This document shows positions 2,937 through 23,566 of a stretch of 64,000 nt of DNA, piece after piece (positions within the stretch are counted from its first letter, which is position 1; each line of letters opens with the position of its first letter). Location: positions 1 to 64,000 of IMG/VR virus record IMGVR_UViG_3300037245_004243. One strand, written 5' to 3'. Position numbers and translations under genes: made by a program. The DNA comes from an uncultured virus (IMG/VR IMGVR_UViG_3300037245_004243). Taxonomy: Duplodnaviria > Heunggongvirae > Uroviricota > Caudoviricetes. The notes beneath the pieces were generated by a model. The model ran no database searches. It was given only the letters and a program-made list of their open reading frames with translations, and was not told the DNA's origin.

Positions 2937-3161
2937 ATGAAGAAAAACATAACCGGACATATGAAAAATTTGAACAAAGCAGAATGGCTGGAAGGGTGCG
3001 CATCATTTATCACCGAGGCCAAAGCACTTATTCGAAGATCAAGCCAACACAAACACTTTGGCCGGGGTTATTTACTCGAGAAAGCCGAGCAAAAATTGGA
3101 TCTTGCTGAAAAATGTGCTGATGCCGCCCAAATAGCAGAAGATGTTGACGATTTCTTTTAA
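2937..3161 (+). CDS. Hypothetical protein
   Basis: GGAG RBS and an upstream GTGACA..TATAAT promoter. Confidence 0.6.
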   Translation: MKKNITGHMKNLNKAEWLEGCASFITEAKALIRRSSQHKHFGRGYLLEKAEQKLDLAEKCADAAQIAEDVDDFF

Positions 3162-5680: not shown

Positions 5681-7411
5681 ATGCTCAAACCGAAGGCCGA
5701 GATAGTGGCAAAAAGTCGCTATTTCATAAATGAAAAAGAAAACTGGGAAGGATTATCAAACCGTGTTGGCCGGGGTGCTGCCAGTGTTGAGGCAACTTAT
5801 GAGCTGCAAGAAGAATATGCCGCCAAGTTTGCCGATATGATATACAATATGCACTTCCTATCTGCTGGCCGCATCCTGCGCAACATGGGTCGACCACGGG
5901 GTACACTATTTAACTGTTATACCAAATCCATTGACGATACAATAGAAAGCATCGCCTATACCTGCGCCGATGCCACAGTTTTATGGTCCGATGGTGGAGG
6001 AGTTGGTTTCAACGCATCAAATATGCGACCGGAAGACGCACCGATTATATCAAAAGGTGGAGAGTCTTCGGGACCGGTTTCTTTTTTGACCGCTTACAAT
6101 GCCTTTGCCGAAACCATCAAAACAGGTGGTGAACGCCGGGCCGCTGCTCTTGCACTAATGAAAGTCTCCCATCCTGATATTTTCAAATTCATTAATTCCA
6201 AAACAGTAGACGGCCTCCTGAATAATTTTAACATCAGTGTCGCCGTGACCGAACAGTTTCTGGACGCCGTCGAAACCAACAGCAAATGGGATTTGCGGTT
6301 TAATCGTCAGAATTATCGGACGATTAAAGCCAGAGAGCTATGGAATTTAATAATGCATAATATGGTAAAACATGCCGAGCCAGGTCTGCTAAACTGGGAC
6401 AATCTCCGCAGCAATAATAGTTGGTATTTTGACAACATTGTCGCGACGAATCCTTGCGGGGAGGCGCCAATGCCAAATGATGGTTCCTGCTGCCTTGGGT
6501 CGCTCGTGTTGCCACGATTTATTACCGGGACGGTTAATACCAATTGGAAACTTTTAGAGCAAATAATCGAGCTATCCGTCAGATTTTTGGATAATATCAT
6601 TAATGTCAATAAATATCCCGACCATATTCCAGGGATTAAAATAAAAGCATTTGATAGCCGTCGAATCGGTCTCGGTGTTATGGGTTATGCCGAATATCTC
6701 TTTGCTAAAAAATTGCGGTATGGGTCGCCAGAGGCCATCGAAGAGACTGAAAAGTTAATGAAAAATATCCGCAATTTTACCTATAAAGCATCCATAAAGC
6801 TGTCCGCCGAAAAAGGATCGTTTCCGAAATATGACACGATGCCATACAGCAAAAGTCATTTTATCAAAACTTTACCCAATGCTCTCAAAATGGACATCAA
6901 AAAATATGGAATCCGGAACGTGACTTGTCAGGCAATTGCGCCCAACGGAACATTGCAACTCTTAGCGGAAGTTACCGGGTCCGCCGAGCCATTACCATTC
7001 AAGGCATATGTCCGGAACGATGAGATCGGCAAACGCGCATATATTCATTCAATATATAAAGATATTATTGAAAATGACAAAGAAACGCCATCTTGGTTTG
7101 TTGATACAAGCGATTTGAGGCCGGAAGACCATCTCGAGACGCAGGTAGCATGCCAGAAATATACCGATGGGGCCGTAAGTAAAACTCTTAATTTACCAAA
7201 GGGCACCAAGCCGGAAGAGCTGAGTCACCTTTTATTACAATATATTCGGGATCTAAAAGGCACAACCTGCTATGTGGATGGGAGCAGAGAAGGTCAAATT
7301 CTGGTGCCCATTGATCGAGAGCAAGCTGAGAAATATTTAGCCAAGGATCAGCACGATGCTGACGCCGATGTTGAAACAACTGAATGTGCCAAAGGAAAAT
7401 GTGACATATAA
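5681..7411 (+). CDS. nrdJ: Class II (adenosylcobalamin-dependent) ribonucleotide reductase
   Basis: AGRIL..NC, GGGVG, TNPCGE, RRIGLG and IAPNG motifs, C-terminal CxxxxC. No adjacent beta subunit gene. Confidence 0.9.
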   Translation: MLKPKAEIVAKSRYFINEKENWEGLSNRVGRGAASVEATYELQEEYAAKFADMIYNMHFLSAGRILRNMGRPRGTLFNCYTKSIDDTIESIAYTCADATVLWSDGGGVGFNASNMRPEDAPIISKGGESSGPVSFLTAYNAFAETIKTGGERRAAALALMKVSHPDIFKFINSKTVDGLLNNFNISVAVTEQFLDAVETNSKWDLRFNRQNYRTIKARELWNLIMHNMVKHAEPGLLNWDNLRSNNSWYFDNIVATNPCGEAPMPNDGSCCLGSLVLPRFITGTVNTNWKLLEQIIELSVRFLDNIINVNKYPDHIPGIKIKAFDSRRIGLGVMGYAEYLFAKKLRYGSPEAIEETEKLMKNIRNFTYKASIKLSAEKGSFPKYDTMPYSKSHFIKTLPNALKMDIKKYGIRNVTCQAIAPNGTLQLLAEVTGSAEPLPFKAYVRNDEIGKRAYIHSIYKDIIENDKETPSWFVDTSDLRPEDHLETQVACQKYTDGAVSKTLNLPKGTKPEELSHLLLQYIRDLKGTTCYVDGSREGQILVPIDREQAEKYLAKDQHDADADVETTECAKGKCDI

Positions 7412-13382: not shown

Positions 13383-13393
13383 GAGAATTGAAA

Positions 13394-14833
13394 ATGCAAT
13401 ATTCGGGAAATATAAAAGTACCTGAAAAAATAAGAACTTTTCTGTCGCAGTTGGAACAGAATGGTCATGCCGCCTATATCGTCGGAGGCGCCGTCCGTGA
13501 TATGCTCATCGGTATAGAGCCGGAAGATTGGGATATCGCCACGTCCGCCGTGCCAGGCCAGATAAAAGCAACTTTCATGTACCTCATCAAATCGGTAAAA
13601 CAAATCGATGCCGCCTTTCCGGTTGTGCTTGTTGACGGGATCGAAATAGCAACATTCAGAGTTGATGCATATGAGAACGGGGAACAGGTTACGGTAGAAA
13701 CAGTCAAAACTATTGAAAAGGATCTCGCTCGCCGGGATTTGACCGTCAACGCAATGGCAATGGATAAAAACGGAAATATCTTCGATCCATATGGTGGACA
13801 CAGGGATTTGGTAAACGGCATTATTCGGTTTGTTGGAGATCCAGTAAAAAGAATATACGAGGACCCTTGTAGAATTATCCGCGCATGTCGTTTTCTGGCA
13901 TCAATTGATGGGCATTTTAGCGAGGGAACACACGTCGCGTTGTATAATTCTGTACATTATGGTCACCACGTTAAAATACCTTCGGAGCGCATTCGATTAG
14001 AAATTTTGAAGGCCATGAAATGTAAGAAGGCCAGTAAATTTTTCATCGCTCTGCATGGAATAGGTTTGCTGGCAGAAATACTCCCGAGCCTTGCCGCAAC
14101 ATTCGGTGCCGATCACGGCCAGTACCATTCCGAAAATATTTTTGATCATATGATGATTGCCGGGGATTTTGCCGGGAAGCATTTTCCAGCACACTGCTTG
14201 AGAAAGCCGATGTTCAGACTGGTTAATTATTTACACGATATCGGCAAGAGCACCCCAAATTATAAAGACGGTGACGTCCATTTTTATGATCATGAAGTCA
14301 AGGGCGCCGCGATGATCGAGACGGAATTAAAATCCTTGAAATTTACGACCGCCGAGATCAAATATGCCAAGAATCTGGTCCTCGTCCATATGAGGGGCCA
14401 TGTAAAAATGAGCCCTAAATCGACTCGGAAATGTATAAAAACCTTTCGGAAGCTGGATGTAAACTGGAAAGAGTGGCTGGCATTAAAATGTGCCGACCGA
14501 GCCGCCAACGTCAGCAGATCATCGCAACCGCTCAAGGTACAGAAAATTGCAAAAAAGTTTCTGCATGAGCTGGAAGATAAGCCGCACAAAAAGGGGCCGG
14601 GGGATCAGCACTTTTATGATTCAGCCAAACAACACCCGAAACCTTGCTTTGAAATAAAGCAATTAGCCATATCCGGCACGCGCATCCAGAAACTTTTAGG
14701 TATTGGGCCGAGTATGGTGATCGGGGTTATTTTAGAATTTCTGCTCACCCAGGTCATTAATAATCCCGATCTGAATACCAGGGAGCAGCTCGATGATTTG
14801 ATTATCGGCAAGCAAAAAGCGCGTACAATCTAA
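13394..14833 (+). CDS. cca: tRNA nucleotidyltransferase (CCA/A-adding, class II) with HD domain
   Basis: VGGAVRD, D.DIAT, DL.RRDLT.NA and EDP.RI.RA.RF motifs; HD domain H..LHDIGK..H..D. Confidence 0.93.
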   Translation: MQYSGNIKVPEKIRTFLSQLEQNGHAAYIVGGAVRDMLIGIEPEDWDIATSAVPGQIKATFMYLIKSVKQIDAAFPVVLVDGIEIATFRVDAYENGEQVTVETVKTIEKDLARRDLTVNAMAMDKNGNIFDPYGGHRDLVNGIIRFVGDPVKRIYEDPCRIIRACRFLASIDGHFSEGTHVALYNSVHYGHHVKIPSERIRLEILKAMKCKKASKFFIALHGIGLLAEILPSLAATFGADHGQYHSENIFDHMMIAGDFAGKHFPAHCLRKPMFRLVNYLHDIGKSTPNYKDGDVHFYDHEVKGAAMIETELKSLKFTTAEIKYAKNLVLVHMRGHVKMSPKSTRKCIKTFRKLDVNWKEWLALKCADRAANVSRSSQPLKVQKIAKKFLHELEDKPHKKGPGDQHFYDSAKQHPKPCFEIKQLAISGTRIQKLLGIGPSMVIGVILEFLLTQVINNPDLNTREQLDDLIIGKQKARTI

Positions 14834-15792: not shown

Positions 15793-16455
15793 ATGAAAAT
15801 TAGCCAAAACACGTTTGATATCATGAAAAACTTCACCACAGTCAACAATTCGATTTTAGTCAACGAGCCTTCGGTCTTGAAGACAATTTCTGTTGCCGAA
15901 AATATCATCGGCATCTATGATATCGAGGAGACCTTCCCTAACTGGCAATTGTATAATTCGGTGACCTTCATGTCAATGGTTTCCCTTTTCGGCCTGGACG
16001 CAATCGATTTTGATTTTCAGGAACTTTGTGTTGTTCTCAAATCACCTGGAGCCAGGGCCACTATCATGTATGACAGCACCGAACTGATCCCGAAACTTGG
16101 AGATCTGAAACCATCGAGCTCATATAAAAAATATGACAAATTCAATGCCACCTTTTCCTTGTCTTCCAACAAAATCGGTCAGATCCAGAAGGCCGCGAAT
16201 ATCCTGGGATTGCCGGATATGAAGATAAGAATGAAAGACGGCAAAGGGCTTATCACCATCAACGATGATGAAAACCCGGATTCAAATCTGCTGAAAATGG
16301 CCATAAGTGGAGAGGGCGATTGCGGAATCACTATGATGGTCAAAAACCTGCAAATTTTCGCCGGGGATTATAACGTTTCAGTCTCCTCGGATGTTTTATC
16401 GAAATTCCATCACGACAAGATGCCGCTGTTTTATGTGGTAGCCGCTAAAAAATAA
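15793..16455 (+). CDS. 45: Sliding clamp (gp45-like)
   Basis: MKIS..T..I.KNF..VNNSI, LKTIS, and NLQI..GDY.V C-terminus; 220 aa. Confidence 0.88.
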   Translation: MKISQNTFDIMKNFTTVNNSILVNEPSVLKTISVAENIIGIYDIEETFPNWQLYNSVTFMSMVSLFGLDAIDFDFQELCVVLKSPGARATIMYDSTELIPKLGDLKPSSSYKKYDKFNATFSLSSNKIGQIQKAANILGLPDMKIRMKDGKGLITINDDENPDSNLLKMAISGEGDCGITMMVKNLQIFAGDYNVSVSSDVLSKFHHDKMPLFYVVAAKK

Positions 16456-16531: not shown

Positions 16532-16584
16532 ACTTGACAATACAATAAATATATAGTAGGATTTAGAATAAAAAGGGAGGACTT

Positions 16585-17700
16585 ATGGCTGATTTAAAAG
16601 TCGAAATTGTCAAAATCACCGAAATCAAAGAGCACCCAAATGCCGATAGAATGGAATTGGCATTTATCGGGGGTTGGCAGACCTGCGTGACTATCGATAA
16701 ATTTAAAGTCGGAGACCGGGTCGTTTATTTGCCGGTCGATTGCATTGTGCCACATGACGTGGAAAATATTCTTTTTCCGCCCGATGCATTAGTTAAATTA
16801 CATAGGTCAAGAATTCGGTCGATCAAATTGCGGAAAGCTATGTCCCAGGGCATGATCGAATTTCCTGAAACATTAGGGTTGAACCCGAATATCAAAGTCG
16901 GCACCGATGTCGCCAAAAAACTTGGGATTACCAAATATGAGCCACCGGTTAAAAGTATGCCGGGCATCATAAAAGTGAAACCGAAAAAACTCAAGAACTC
17001 GGATTTTAAAGTTTACACCGACATCAACCATTTCAAATATTACATTCAAGCAATGGAAGGAATGCGGATTTGGGGCACCGAAAAAGTCCACGGCACAAAC
17101 TTTCGTTCTGGTTGGGTCAAATATAACGCCTATAATTGGTGGAGAAAAATCGCCAAAAGGTTAGGGTTCAAAAATTTTCAGTGGGAATTTGCCTGGGGTT
17201 CACATCGGGTTGAGCTTACGCGAAAGGGCCGACGTTCGACGGGTTTTTATGGGAAGGACGTATATGGCATCATAGCGGAAAAATACAACCTGAAGCACCT
17301 CCTTAAGCCTGGGGAAGTAATCTATGCCGAGATCTATGGCCGGGGCATTCAGAAAAAGTATGATTACGGTCTGAAAGAAAATGATTTCAGGATGGTCGTC
17401 ATCGATGTGATGATAGACGGGAAATATATCGATGGACCGGACGCAAAGCAATTTTGTGACATGCTCGATCTACCTTATGCTCCCGTGCTTATCAGTGGCG
17501 ATATTTTCGACTATGAAAAATGCCTGGCCGCTGGCAATCCCAAAGGCAATAAATCGAAACTATGCAAGAAAATGCAAGCGCCGATGGAAGGTATTGTCAT
17601 CAAACCCATTACTGAAACCAAAGGTTACATGGGTCGAATGGTCTTCAAATTACTCAATGACGCCTATTGGTTAGCGAAAGGAAATTCAGATTGGCATTAA
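16585..17700 (+). CDS. ATP-dependent RNA ligase (Rnl2 / DRB0094 family)
   Basis: N-terminal HPNADR.E...GW OB-like module; TEKVHGTN, YAEIYG.GIQ, EGIVIKP and FK motifs. Confidence 0.9.
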   Translation: MADLKVEIVKITEIKEHPNADRMELAFIGGWQTCVTIDKFKVGDRVVYLPVDCIVPHDVENILFPPDALVKLHRSRIRSIKLRKAMSQGMIEFPETLGLNPNIKVGTDVAKKLGITKYEPPVKSMPGIIKVKPKKLKNSDFKVYTDINHFKYYIQAMEGMRIWGTEKVHGTNFRSGWVKYNAYNWWRKIAKRLGFKNFQWEFAWGSHRVELTRKGRRSTGFYGKDVYGIIAEKYNLKHLLKPGEVIYAEIYGRGIQKKYDYGLKENDFRMVVIDVMIDGKYIDGPDAKQFCDMLDLPYAPVLISGDIFDYEKCLAAGNPKGNKSKLCKKMQAPMEGIVIKPITETKGYMGRMVFKLLNDAYWLAKGNSDWH

Positions 17701-17820
17701 AAAAACCAGAATGGCCGGAAGGGCCGGAATTTCGTGACGATTTCCCGGAATGTGTACCTATCATTCCGGGGGCAATTATCCTTTTAGTTATGATAATCGT
17801 CTTATTGATTTGGGGGTAAA

Positions 17821-17994
17821 ATGGACGGACTGGAACTTCGAAAAAAAATTCAAAAACTCCGTGAAATAACCGGAGCTGGATTATTGGACTGTAAACGCGC
17901 CATTGAGCAATCTTCAAATATGAAAGATGCAATTAAATATATCAGAAACTTACATATGGGCGTTGACAAAAATATAATTCGGAGCTATTATTAG
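17821..17994 (+). CDS. Stand-alone EF-Ts N-terminal (UBA-like) domain, 57 aa
   Basis: Hand translation MDGLELRKKIQKLREITGAGLLDCKRAIEQSSNMKDAIKYIRNLHMGVDKNIIRSYY matches the EF-Ts signature LRxxTGAGxxDCKxA. GGGG RBS. Confidence 0.8.
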   Translation: MDGLELRKKIQKLREITGAGLLDCKRAIEQSSNMKDAIKYIRNLHMGVDKNIIRSYY

Positions 17995-18848
17995 TCAAGA
18001 TCAAGAAAGGGAGAGAATGTATATTTTAATTTTTGAGGATGGCAGCATAGGAAAAACGGAAAAAATATCTGAATCCGAGATAGAATCATGCAATGACGGG
18101 ATTCTCGATATCATAGACATCGAAAATATGACGACCTTAAATGGTGATGATTGGGTCGCCATAGAATCAGTTTAAATCAGTTTAAACCCAAACACAAGGA
18201 GAATTGAACATGAAAACTTTTGAAATGCTAACGGGGTATGAGGCCGAATACGAAACCATGCTGAAAACAGAACTGGATCGCCTGATCTCCAAAAAGAAAG
18301 GGACCGGGATTACCTTCAAAGAAGACAATATGATTTATCAGCTCTCGATCCACCTCGGCATCACGGTCGACCTGCTCAGCCAACGGGAAACCAAAACCGC
18401 CGCCGTCAAGGATATCGGAATCGAATCCTACAACTAACCTCCTGGTTGCGGGGCGTTGTCCATTTGGGCAACGCCCCAAAATTCTGCAAAAGAGGTATTA
18501 AAATGTTTTATATATTCGAAGTGCAAAACGCTAAAAAAGCGAGCTGGAAGAAAGAGGCAATAAAAATAAGTGAGAGTTTTGCCAGACCAGTAATCATCGA
18601 GGTAAAATCAATCGTCGTGCCTCCTAAAAAATCTCTTTTCGAGAGAATTAAAAATACTTTGAGGAAAAATTAAAAATTATGTACCGAGCAATTTTAAAAG
18701 ATAGTCATAGTCTGGATAAAGCAACCGTTTTCAAATGTGAATCGTGTGGCAATATCGAAATTAAGCCAACCATCTGTCCTACTTCGGGCATGAAAGCCGG
18801 GCATGGATTTGAGCACATTTGCTCAAAGTGCAGGGGCCTGTTAAAAAC

Positions 18849-19093
18849 AATTTTGACGACGAAAGGAGATTGAGATATAATGTGGTATAATGGATTAAAA
18901 CAAAGGAGAATTGAATTATGAAACTTTTTGAATTCACTCAAAAGAATGGACCTTCGGGCATCAACACCACAATTACCATCCCGCCGATAATGTGCGGCAT
19001 TATTATTTCGGTCACATTAATAATCGCATTCATTCTTTCTTAAGGGAGAGTGATATGGAAATTTTGACGACGAAAGGAGATTGAGATATAATG
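18849..19093 (+). repeat. 34-bp direct repeat (18849-18882 and 19060-19093), a combined promoter and RBS
   Basis: AATTTTGACGACGAAAGGAGATTGAGATATAATG occurs twice. Confidence 0.9.
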
Positions 19094-19347: not shown

Positions 19348-20304
19348 ATGAGCCTTGTTTCCAAACAATACGACGATTTCATTTGGGAGCTGAAATTCCG
19401 ACCGACAACACTTGACCAAATTATACTGCCAGACTCTTTGTTCAAGCAGATGCAATCAGTCAAGTCGTCGGGTAAACTTCCAAATATGCTGTTCTCGGGG
19501 CCACCGGGTACCGGCAAAACAACGACCGCCTTTGTGCTGGCCGACGATATGGATCTCTCTGCGATGTATATGAATATGTCGCTTGAGACTTCGATCAATG
19601 ATATCCGCAACAAACTGATGGGATTTGCTTCCAGTGTTAATATGGAAGGCAAGCAAAAATTATTCATCGGGGATGAATTCGATGAGTTGAGCACATCAGC
19701 GATGAAATCGTTAAAGGGTGTCATCGAGAAAATGTCGTCCAATTGCAAATTCATTTTTACCTCGAATCACAAAGGCAAAATCATTGAGCCTATCATTTCC
19801 CGTCTTCAGGAAGTCGACTTTATATTTTCAAAGGAAGACACCGGGGAAATGAAAAAGAAAATGTGGAAGGTCGCATGCCAGATTTGCCAAAAAGAAGAGG
19901 TTCCATTTCAAAAGGCGGCAGTGGCCGAGGTAGTCAAAATGCTTTTCCCTGATATGCGTAAAATCCTCAACCATCTGCAAATGTTATCGCTGCGGGGAGA
20001 AATTACAGTCGATGCCGTCAGTGCATGTGTCATCACTGATACCGAATCGTTTTTTCAATACCTGCGGGACAAGGATTGGCCGGGCATCCGACAGTATATC
20101 GTTGACCTGCCCATTGCCGAGAACGATTTCTATTCGGTACTTTATAACCATGTCGAACGGTATATGCGTGAAGATTTCGTCACCCAAGCCATCGTCTTGA
20201 TTGCAAAGTATCAGTCTGAAGGCGATCATGCGGTTGATGCGCAAATTCCTCTGGCCGCGCTCGCAATCGAGATGATGAATTTCGAGTTCAAAAAAGATTT
20301 TTAA
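19348..20304 (+). CDS. 44: Clamp loader large subunit (gp44-like AAA+)
   Basis: WELKFRP, GPPGTGKTT, DEFD and ISR motifs. Confidence 0.95.
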   Translation: MSLVSKQYDDFIWELKFRPTTLDQIILPDSLFKQMQSVKSSGKLPNMLFSGPPGTGKTTTAFVLADDMDLSAMYMNMSLETSINDIRNKLMGFASSVNMEGKQKLFIGDEFDELSTSAMKSLKGVIEKMSSNCKFIFTSNHKGKIIEPIISRLQEVDFIFSKEDTGEMKKKMWKVACQICQKEEVPFQKAAVAEVVKMLFPDMRKILNHLQMLSLRGEITVDAVSACVITDTESFFQYLRDKDWPGIRQYIVDLPIAENDFYSVLYNHVERYMREDFVTQAIVLIAKYQSEGDHAVDAQIPLAALAIEMMNFEFKKDF

Positions 20305-23223: not shown

Positions 23224-23300
23224 GCGGGATTAACTCAGCCTGGTAGAGGTGCCGCCTTCCAAGCAGCACGCCGTTGGTTCGAATCCAACATCCCGCTCCA
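23224..23300 (+). tRNA. tRNA-Gly (TCC)
   Basis: Cloverleaf, anticodon loop CT-TCC-AA, T-loop TTCGAAT, encoded CCA. Confidence 0.9.
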
Positions 23301-23306
23301 TTTCAT

Positions 23307-23379
23307 TCCGAGATAGCTCAGATGGAAGAGCTCGAGGCCGTTAACCTCGTTGTCGCAGGTTCGAATCCTGCTCTCGGAG
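23307..23379 (+). tRNA. tRNA-Asn (GTT)
   Basis: Cloverleaf, CGAGG-CCGTTAA-CCTCG anticodon arm, G73; CCA not fully encoded. Confidence 0.9.
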
Positions 23380-23388
23380 CAATTTTTC

Positions 23389-23464
23389 GGGGGGGAAGGC
23401 AAAATGGTGCGCCGCATGGATGTGGCCCATGTGTTACGGAGTCCGAATCTCCGCCCTCCCTCCA
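23389..23464 (+). tRNA. tRNA-His (GTG), atypical
   Basis: G7/CCCTCCC acceptor, CATGG-ATGTGGC-CCATG anticodon arm, T-loop TCCGAAT, TCCA end. Confidence 0.75.
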
Positions 23465-23477
23465 ACAACATTTTTTT

Positions 23478-23566
23478 GCGGGGGTGCCCGAGTCTGGCTT
23501 AAGGGAAGGGATTGTAAATCCCTCGTCATTGCGACAACGGTGGTTCAAATCCATCCTCCCGCACCA
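23478..23566 (+). tRNA. tRNA-Tyr (GTA)
   Basis: AGGGA-TTGTAAA-TCCCT anticodon arm, long variable arm, ACCA end. Confidence 0.92.

Follow-up and report, generated by a model that had tools for sequence, protein, structure and literature searches.

The locus

We analysed the first 64 kb of the 129.5-kb IMG/VR virus record IMGVR_UViG_3300037245_004243 (an uncultured member of the Caudoviricetes; completeness estimate 74%), a stretch referred to below as the window, and within it an open reading frame (ORF) of 57 amino acids (aa) whose product we call the mini-protein. Its surroundings are a T4-type replication and RNA-repair module in which every gene lies on the + strand (Table 1). An earlier reading made from the sequence without database searches (the sequence-only reading) had reported a 57-aa ORF with an EF-Ts-like motif close downstream of an RNA ligase gene. 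The ORF is as described, with the dot spacing of the quoted motif off by 1-2 residues: counted from the ATG start, the motif runs K12-LREITGAGLLDCKRAI-E29 ... A37-I-K-Y-I-R42, and 120 nucleotides (nt) separate the end of the ligase gene from the start of the ORF. An in-frame stop codon lies 12 nt 5' of the ATG, so that this ATG is the first possible start and there is no longer ORF. No deposited phage has a clamp loader more than 36% identical to the one in this module, which makes this a distant T4-like phage; a blastn search of positions 16585-18500 against deposited phages gave no match, and a single-sequence search of viral contigs for loci related to the mini-protein ORF found none.

Table 1. 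Features in and around the mini-protein gene (positions in the window)
Feature	Position	Strand	Basis or remark
CCA-adding tRNA nucleotidyltransferase	13388-14833	+	replication/RNA-repair module
gp45-type sliding clamp	15793-16455	+	replication/RNA-repair module
Sigma-70-type promoter-like site (10/12)	16534..16562	+	consensus scan; ahead of RNA ligase
RNA ligase, upstream neighbour	16585..17700	+	Pfam RNA_ligase 1.7e-13; PHA02142 OB domain; PHROG 968 1.6e-45
G-rich Shine-Dalgarno-like run, 4-9 nt ahead of ATG	17812..17816	+	read from the sequence; putative function
Mini-protein gene, 57 aa, stop codon included	17821..17994	+	ORF list; conserved relatives of 48-80 aa; confident three-helix model
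EF-Ts N-terminal (TS-N) domain: helix 1, TGAG turn, helix 2, helix 3	17842..17949	+	TIGR00116 match; Foldseek
Sigma-70-type promoter-like site (TTGACA, 17 nt, TATTAT; 11/12)	17963..17991	+	consensus match only; in 3' end of mini-protein gene, faces ORF 18017..18175
Run of small ORFs	between RNA ligase and clamp loader	+	ORF list
gp44-type clamp loader	19348-20304	+	replication/RNA-repair module

Domain identity and fold of the mini-protein

The mini-protein is a stand-alone EF-Ts N-terminal (TS-N, UBA-like) three-helix domain and nothing else. In the search with hidden Markov models (HMMs) for this domain that the sequence-only reading had proposed, NCBIfam TIGR00116 (tsf) matched at E = 7.4e-7, with residues 8-43 on profile positions 7-43 of 293 (28.6 bits, below the cut-off of 104.05). 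The top six rows of a phmmer search against the PDB were all EF-Ts chains (E = 0.001 for 1aip_C and 0.0046 for 1efu_B), and the first L7/L12 chain followed at E = 0.66. A profile built from 14 stand-alone sequences (described below) found the PDB chains 1efu_B (E. coli EF-Ts) at E = 4.8e-13, 7vmx_A at 1.4e-11 and 1aip_C at 7e-11, compared with 0.031 for the best L7/L12 chain and 0.02-0.04 for UBA chains (0.023 for the best UBA-like one). Scanned singly at E <= 0.01, all 14 stand-alone members matched Pfam EF-Ts_N (PF25025, a model built on mitochondrial EF-Ts), seven matched Ribosomal_L12 and four matched UBA. For the mini-protein itself, EF-Ts_N scored 16.7 bits (gathering cut-off 33.2) and Ribosomal_L12 likewise 16.7 bits (cut-off 25.9), and PF00627 (UBA/TS-N) gave no match at E <= 1. 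PHROGs held no family for the mini-protein (best E = 0.14), and none for the 53-aa or L016 proteins introduced below.

AlphaFold2, run without an alignment, predicted a three-helix bundle with helices at residues 3-17, 21-30 and 34-46 (mean predicted local distance difference test score, pLDDT, of 81); the pLDDT of the mini-protein was ~90 over residues 1-40 and low in the final 10-15 residues. When this model was compared with the PDB by Foldseek, all 14 rows listed among ranks 1-15 were EF-Ts chains (27-40% identity). The root-mean-square deviation to EF-Ts N domains was mostly 0.7-1.0 A over ~38 columns (range 0.7-1.7 A over 37-41 columns), with one outlier, a nuclear magnetic resonance model of EF-Ts, at 3.3 A over 46 columns. 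The Foldseek E-values were weak (0.1-0.7), as expected at 38 residues. No L7/L12 chain occurred among the listed rows, and generic UBA domains appeared from rank 16 on.

Two other assignments were tried and rejected. The match to the L7/L12 C-terminal domain (PF00542) covered 23 residues only (profile positions 16-38 of 67) and stayed below the cut-off, and TIGR00855 gave E = 0.16. Generic UBA chains ranked under every EF-Ts chain in Foldseek and had far weaker profile E-values. The mini-protein is thus outside L7/L12 and the generic UBA families, the two assignments that the sequence-only reading had set against its own and that both match worse than EF-Ts; it is also outside EF-Ts proper, as neither core subdomain N nor core subdomain C, nor the TDFV/F81 region, nor a score above the cut-off was found for it. 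That a stand-alone EF-Ts N domain without the core subdomains is encoded here, as first read from the sequence, is borne out by the TIGR00116 match, the single tsf match in the record, the fold model and the family profile, which agree.

Relatives and conservation

A near-length homologue search with the single sequence returned the mini-protein alone; its relatives surfaced through exhaustive HMMER and profile searches. Among 1.84 billion representatives, exhaustive HMMER found 60 proteins at E <= 0.001, of which 43 were inspected. These fall into five groups: stand-alone domains, domains with an extension, truncated or frameshifted tsf calls, L12-like repeat proteins and full-length EF-Ts. 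The stand-alone relatives that end just past helix 3 are P0005 (48 aa), P0014, P0031, P0022, P0062, P0056 and P0039, and those with an extension are P0055 and P0059. A profile search restricted to proteins of 26-116 aa gave 783 matches at E <= 0.001 among 2694 candidates. We inspected 27 of the 783 by eye, judging by whether the usual EF-Ts continuation comes after helix 3, and 17 look stand-alone and 10 look like broken tsf.

The closest relatives are P0099 (79 aa as called; 79% identity) and P0005 (70-74% identity), which form a clade of their own with the mini-protein, with 25 invariant columns. Both end right past helix 3, so that the last ten residues of the mini-protein are not conserved. 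Six residues (R14, T17, G18, G20, C24 and Y40) do not vary across the 14 stand-alone sequences, all of which have K or R at position 25. The stand-alone relatives are 48-80 aa long and belong to several clades, some of whose members lie in IMG/VR phage contigs. Further clades, with P0014, P0022, P0102 and P0131 among them, are found on Logan/ENA contigs of 58-135 kb. In the ESM Atlas there were 30 feature matches, mostly unnamed clusters of 49-66 aa, some of them recorded as viral, which serve as leads only.

One clade, of 53-aa proteins, is present on nine IMG/VR contigs of 4.6-122 kb (in one of them the gene is cut by the contig end). The genes sit within tight same-strand arrays of small ORFs, with a CpeT-like cyanophage gene nearby in one case (L010). 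The gene is 98-99.5% identical at the DNA level in three different local gene orders, and the shared flanking blocks are 91-97% identical. When the clamp loader of the window was sought in four related virus records, one of the four gave a weak match (E = 1.3e-4), so that the phages of the 53-aa clade are not close kin of this phage. The relatives in other phages do not adjoin an RNA ligase gene, and the linkage to the ligase is thus not conserved.

Some relatives have additional segments. In L016, a viral contig of 288 kb (positions 5914-6237), an EF-Ts N-like domain is followed by a heptad-like, coiled-coil-like segment, and in LR745208, an uncultured phage of 485 kb (L005, positions 2300-2617), a coiled-coil-like segment precedes the EF-Ts N-like domain; as read from their sequences, these joined forms hint at oligomeric or tethered versions. 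Pseudomonas phage ventosus encodes an 86-aa hypothetical protein that has the motif, yet no Pfam match. Ralstonia phage RSP15 (NC_030948.1, about 110783-110995; L019, positions 2947-3159) has an unannotated ORF of ~70 aa, placed between the regA (ORF136) and gp32 genes and ending in Cys-x-x-Cys, which is a diverged EF-Ts N-like copy. Two sets of matches were set aside. A metagenome scan for the nearest clade led to L018, where the matching segment is part of a 237-aa protein that lacks the TGAG motif, a false lead at the level of the pattern, and most tblastn matches in deposited phages were to complete bacterial tsf genes, from records that are unverified or contaminated (H2 and H4 inspected; H5, H33 and H34 annotated tsf).

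Absence of the EF-Ts core

Computation places no EF-Ts core at this locus. The mini-protein itself is the sole TIGR00116 match in the whole 129.5-kb record (E = 8.3e-7), with no second tsf match, and none of the three frames downstream of its ORF contains EF-Ts-like sequence. The excerpted text of PMC8807479 describes nucleotide release by EF-Ts as the work of core subdomain N, which pushes switch II, and of the C-terminal helix, which displaces switch I, and locates the catalytic parts of EF-Ts outside the N domain. With no EF-Ts core in the record, the mini-protein cannot be an exchange factor. This bears directly on the idea that the mini-protein accelerates the recycling of EF-Tu as a minimal exchange factor or activator, a role that has been suggested for the truncated EF-Ts of phage Colossus. 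For Colossus gp247, faster translation was put forward as the gain to the phage (PMC3556154, in excerpt), but release needs both the C-terminal helix and core subdomain N (PMC8807479), in which the Colossus paper emphasises F81 (PMC3556154, in the part available), and these parts are absent from a protein whose match is limited to profile positions 7-43 of 293. We regard this explanation as extremely improbable.

The missing core could also be read as decay, the ORF being a functionless remnant of a captured host tsf, or one that is not expressed. In favour of this are the shortness of the ORF, a Shine-Dalgarno-like site that falls short of those of its neighbours, and the last ten residues, which are not conserved and overlap a promoter-like site; moreover, of the 27 small EF-Ts-like proteins inspected from the database, 10 are clearly tsf calls that were truncated or frameshifted, and the ratio of non-synonymous to synonymous substitution rates (dN/dS) gave no information. 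Against a remnant, no trace of the EF-Ts core was found in any downstream frame or elsewhere in the record, several clades share the domain-only architecture and keep the core motif unchanged, the 53-aa clade has been retained through mosaic reshuffling, and the mini-protein is predicted to fold confidently alone. We consider a remnant very unlikely. The pseudogene-like decay that the sequence-only reading had counted against itself is absent, since equally short relatives are conserved, and ORF 17821-17994 is a real, probably early-expressed phage gene.

Predicted docking on EF-Tu

In the M. tuberculosis EF-Tu/EF-Ts structure, as given in the accessible part of PMC9529903, the N domain contacts EF-Tu through R13 (helix 1) to P114/E155 and through K24 (helix 2) to D144/D145. 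In the alignment to 7vmx_A these two residues correspond to R14 and K25 of the mini-protein, of which R14 is invariant and K25 is K or R in 14 of 14 sequences. We co-folded the mini-protein with residues 1-205 of EFTU1_ECOLI, using for the mini-protein an alignment (A2) of the 14 stand-alone sequences. The interface score ipSAE (interaction prediction score from aligned errors) was 0.71 (0.69-0.72 in three runs), compared with 0.01 for the best of three controls. The mark applied to such co-folds is reached by 58 of 80 solved complexes and by 2 of 110 mismatched pairs, counts that are rough since our own alignment was supplied. The runs share at least 90% of their contacts, and the pLDDT of the partner is at least 77. 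The predicted interface joins residues 108-113 and 140-153 of EF-Tu to residues 3, 6-7, 10-11, 20-23 and 25 of the mini-protein, with K25 beside EF-Tu 143 and 146, in an EF-Ts-like pose on the helix D face. The sequence-only reading had proposed an EF-Tu-binding miniprotein that modulates elongation or shields EF-Tu from Lit/Doc-type toxins. Its binding part gains support in silico from the retained contact residues and the co-fold, whereas neither the window nor the neighbourhoods of the relatives gave a pointer to modulated elongation or to shielding from Lit- or Doc-type toxins in particular, and no link of the mini-protein to Lit, type IV Thoeris or Avs7 was found.

On the resulting model, helix 1 and the G20-K25 turn of the mini-protein would contact the G domain of EF-Tu at its helix D face, the surface used by full-length EF-Ts and, reportedly, by the C-terminal domain of L7/L12, whose interface with EF-Tu helix D is described as homologous to the EF-Ts one (PMC5770553, in excerpt); the same reported homology accounts for the Pfam tie between EF-Ts_N and Ribosomal_L12. 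The mini-protein has neither of the EF-Ts parts that displace switch II, switch I and Mg2+ (core subdomain N and the C-terminal helix), so that it would not catalyse the release of guanosine diphosphate and would be a non-catalytic occupant of the site. With lower confidence, it may compete with EF-Ts and/or with recruitment by the ribosomal stalk for a fraction of EF-Tu; alternatively, it may mask EF-Tu from a host factor that acts on EF-Tu during infection. A local or protective role would be as plausible as inhibition. Among the systems that act on EF-Tu, Lit and type IV Thoeris cleave it and Avs7 uses it through domains II-III (PMC13581612, in excerpt).

Several points weigh against docking on EF-Tu as the function. 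The EF-Tu/EF-Ts complexes have been solved (1EFU, 1AIP and 7VMX), so that the co-fold shows likeness and may reflect the memory of the model. For the EF-Tu of the host we substituted the G domain of E. coli EF-Tu, so that docking sites elsewhere were not available to the co-fold. An isolated N domain is part of the EF-Ts interface only, and its affinity could be low. EF-Tu reportedly makes up 6-10% of the E. coli proteome (PMC13581612, in the text available), an abundance that makes it doubtful whether a small phage protein could titrate it stoichiometrically. The Pfam score for EF-Ts_N lies under its gathering cut-off and is tied with that for Ribosomal_L12. The copy in RSP15 lacks the TGAG turn, which is replaced, so that the same partner need not hold across the family. 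Eight loci of the 53-aa clade amount to four distinct DNAs that are 1-2 bases apart, and all the changes are non-synonymous, a divergence too small for dN/dS. Finally, no conserved neighbour gene that would give a functional hint was found, the neighbours varying from phage to phage.

Some of these observations suit a different explanation, in which the mini-protein is a UBA-like three-helix adaptor of EF-Ts descent that now serves another phage or host partner, unrelated to EF-Tu. UBA-like folds are versatile, and from rank 16 on the Foldseek list consists of generic UBA domains; 5 of the 14 family members match UBA_8 and 4 of 14 match UBA; the domain occurs in module-like fusions to coiled coils (L016 and LR745208) or, in an L12-like variant, to an RF-1 fragment (Psxphi15, see below); and the loss of the TGAG turn in RSP15 would be in keeping with a change of partner. 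However, the EF-Ts-specific signature of R14, T17-G18-x-G20, C24 and K/R25, which includes both published contacts, is kept across clades, the profile favours EF-Ts over any UBA chain by approximately eleven orders of magnitude, and in the co-fold it is the conserved face that meets EF-Tu, the controls of the same modelling scoring 0.01. We judge such an adaptor unlikely. Taken together with the missing core, these predictions lead us to favour, with moderate confidence, docking of the mini-protein on the EF-Tu of the host without recycling it.

Relation to known systems

The object described here is a known domain in a stand-alone, phage-encoded form that recurs across phage lineages. The N domain of bacterial EF-Ts (E. 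coli residues 1-54 according to the excerpt of PMC9529903; 1EFU, 1AIP, 7VMX; PF25025, PF00627) has the same three-helix fold, at 0.7-1.0 A and 34-40% identity, and shares with the mini-protein the helix-TGAG-helix signature (T17-G18-A19-G20 here), the basic contact residues and, as predicted, the same EF-Tu surface. The mini-protein differs from EF-Ts in its size (57 aa against about 196-293), in being phage-encoded and in lacking the core, the dimerisation module and the C-terminal module, and the loop past helix 2 and the invariant Y40 characterise the set of phage mini-proteins and are not general in EF-Ts. With the L7/L12 C-terminal domain (PF00542) it has in common the helix-turn-helix motif, equal Pfam bits and, as predicted for the mini-protein, the docking site on EF-Tu reported for that domain (PMC5770553), but it is not a member of that family, given a match of 23 residues only and a profile E-value of 0.031 as against 4.8e-13 for EF-Ts.

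Two phage systems invite comparison. Caulobacter phage Colossus gp247, a truncated EF-Ts of 98 aa, is likewise a phage-encoded EF-Ts fragment that was proposed to act on host translation; by the description in the accessible part of that paper, gp247 keeps core subdomain N and the F81 equivalent, whereas the mini-protein keeps the opposite piece, the N-terminal docking domain (PMC3556154). Q-beta replicase (3MMP, 4R71 and 3AGP), which is among our sequence and fold matches through its EF-Ts part, is also a case of phage use of the EF-Tu/EF-Ts pair, but Q-beta borrows whole host proteins as polymerase subunits, whereas here a DNA phage encodes a single EF-Ts domain of its own. We found no literature on a stand-alone EF-Ts N domain in phages, gp247 being the sole published phage EF-Ts fragment that we found, and none on a phage-encoded protein known to bind the EF-Tu G domain.

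A wider proposal, which we put forward tentatively and hold to be possible but doubtful, is that stand-alone EF-Ts N domains are widespread early mini-proteins of phages, acquired more than once, that plug helix D of EF-Tu and thereby re-tune host translation during takeover or shield EF-Tu from defences such as Lit, type IV Thoeris and Avs7 (PMC13581612) that cut or co-opt it. If this were true, they would constitute a new kind of counter-defence or takeover factor directed at the most abundant translation GTPase, which several anti-phage systems and toxins target or employ as a cofactor. If the mini-protein does bind EF-Tu, it would reveal how phages adjust or safeguard translation elongation, and it would serve as a natural probe of the site on helix D that EF-Ts and L7/L12 have in common. 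That equally short copies occur in phage lineages unrelated to one another suggests that the strategy is general and not peculiar to a single genome, and the mini-protein is easy to test, being small, predicted to fold alone and amenable to clear point mutants.

Putative expression signals

The Shine-Dalgarno-like run ahead of the mini-protein ATG is weaker than the AGGAG-like sites of the neighbouring small ORFs. A consensus scan of the + strand found no terminator-like site between positions 17700 and 17821, that is, between the ligase and the ORF, and for this reason the RNA ligase and the mini-protein are probably co-transcribed from the promoter-like site at 16534-16562. A terminator or structured RNA in the gap was considered and rejected: a 10-bp hairpin is present, yet the stretch as a whole has a folding z-score of -0.15 and 80 of 200 shuffles fold equally well. 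The promoter-like site in the 3' end of the mini-protein gene overlaps residues 48-57, which are absent from the nearest relatives P0099 and P0005. The same scan counted 14 promoter-like sites compared with 7.5 +/- 2.3 in shuffles, an approximately 2-fold excess that fits an early region.

Near-consensus sigma-70-type sites (11/12 each, + strand) at 17963-17991, 18853-18881 and 19064-19092 face the small ORFs 18017, 18918 and 19091, and the last of them directly precedes the ATG of ORF 19091. The arrangement of these three putative promoters suggests that separately promoted early genes form an array between the RNA ligase and the clamp loader.

Neighbouring genes and other proteins with related units

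ARAGORN placed three tRNA genes, tRNA-Gly(TCC), tRNA-Asn(GTT) and tRNA-Tyr(GTA), within 23224-23566 on the + strand, with a 97-nt gap at 23381-23477. These genes, the CCA-adding enzyme and the RNA ligase make up a tRNA supply and repair kit near the mini-protein gene. A further ORF of 50 aa (17667-17819, +) spans the gap between the ligase and the mini-protein, starting with a TTG within the 3' end of the ligase gene and ending with a stop codon 1 nt ahead of the mini-protein ATG. Its C-terminal half is strongly hydrophobic, as in a possible membrane mini-protein; it has no Pfam match and no obvious ribosome-binding site, and it may not be a gene.

The searches also brought up proteins in which L7/L12-like and EF-Ts-like elements are combined with other parts. 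WVS24628.1 of Pseudomonas phage Psxphi15 (L006, positions 2276-2698; 140 aa) joins an RF-1/GGQ fragment (36.2 bits, cut-off 35) to a helix-turn-helix that resembles the L7/L12 C-terminal domain and EF-Ts (Ribosomal_L12 26.3 bits, cut-off 25.9) and has a Cys-rich tail, an unusual chimera of translation-factor parts. Eight proteins of 195-318 aa (P0009, P0011, P0016, P0017, P0018, P0026, P0044 and P0048) contain three to six tandem units resembling the L12 C-terminal domain and EF-Ts, several of them with a hydrophobic segment or a zinc-ribbon-like end; judged from the sequences, these proteins seem to represent an undescribed arrangement of the EF-Tu-docking motif in repeats. In P0023 (148 aa), the N-terminal half resembles the start of EF-Ts and the C-terminal half the C-terminal domain of L7/L12, which makes it either a real fusion that unites both binders of EF-Tu helix D or an assembly chimera.

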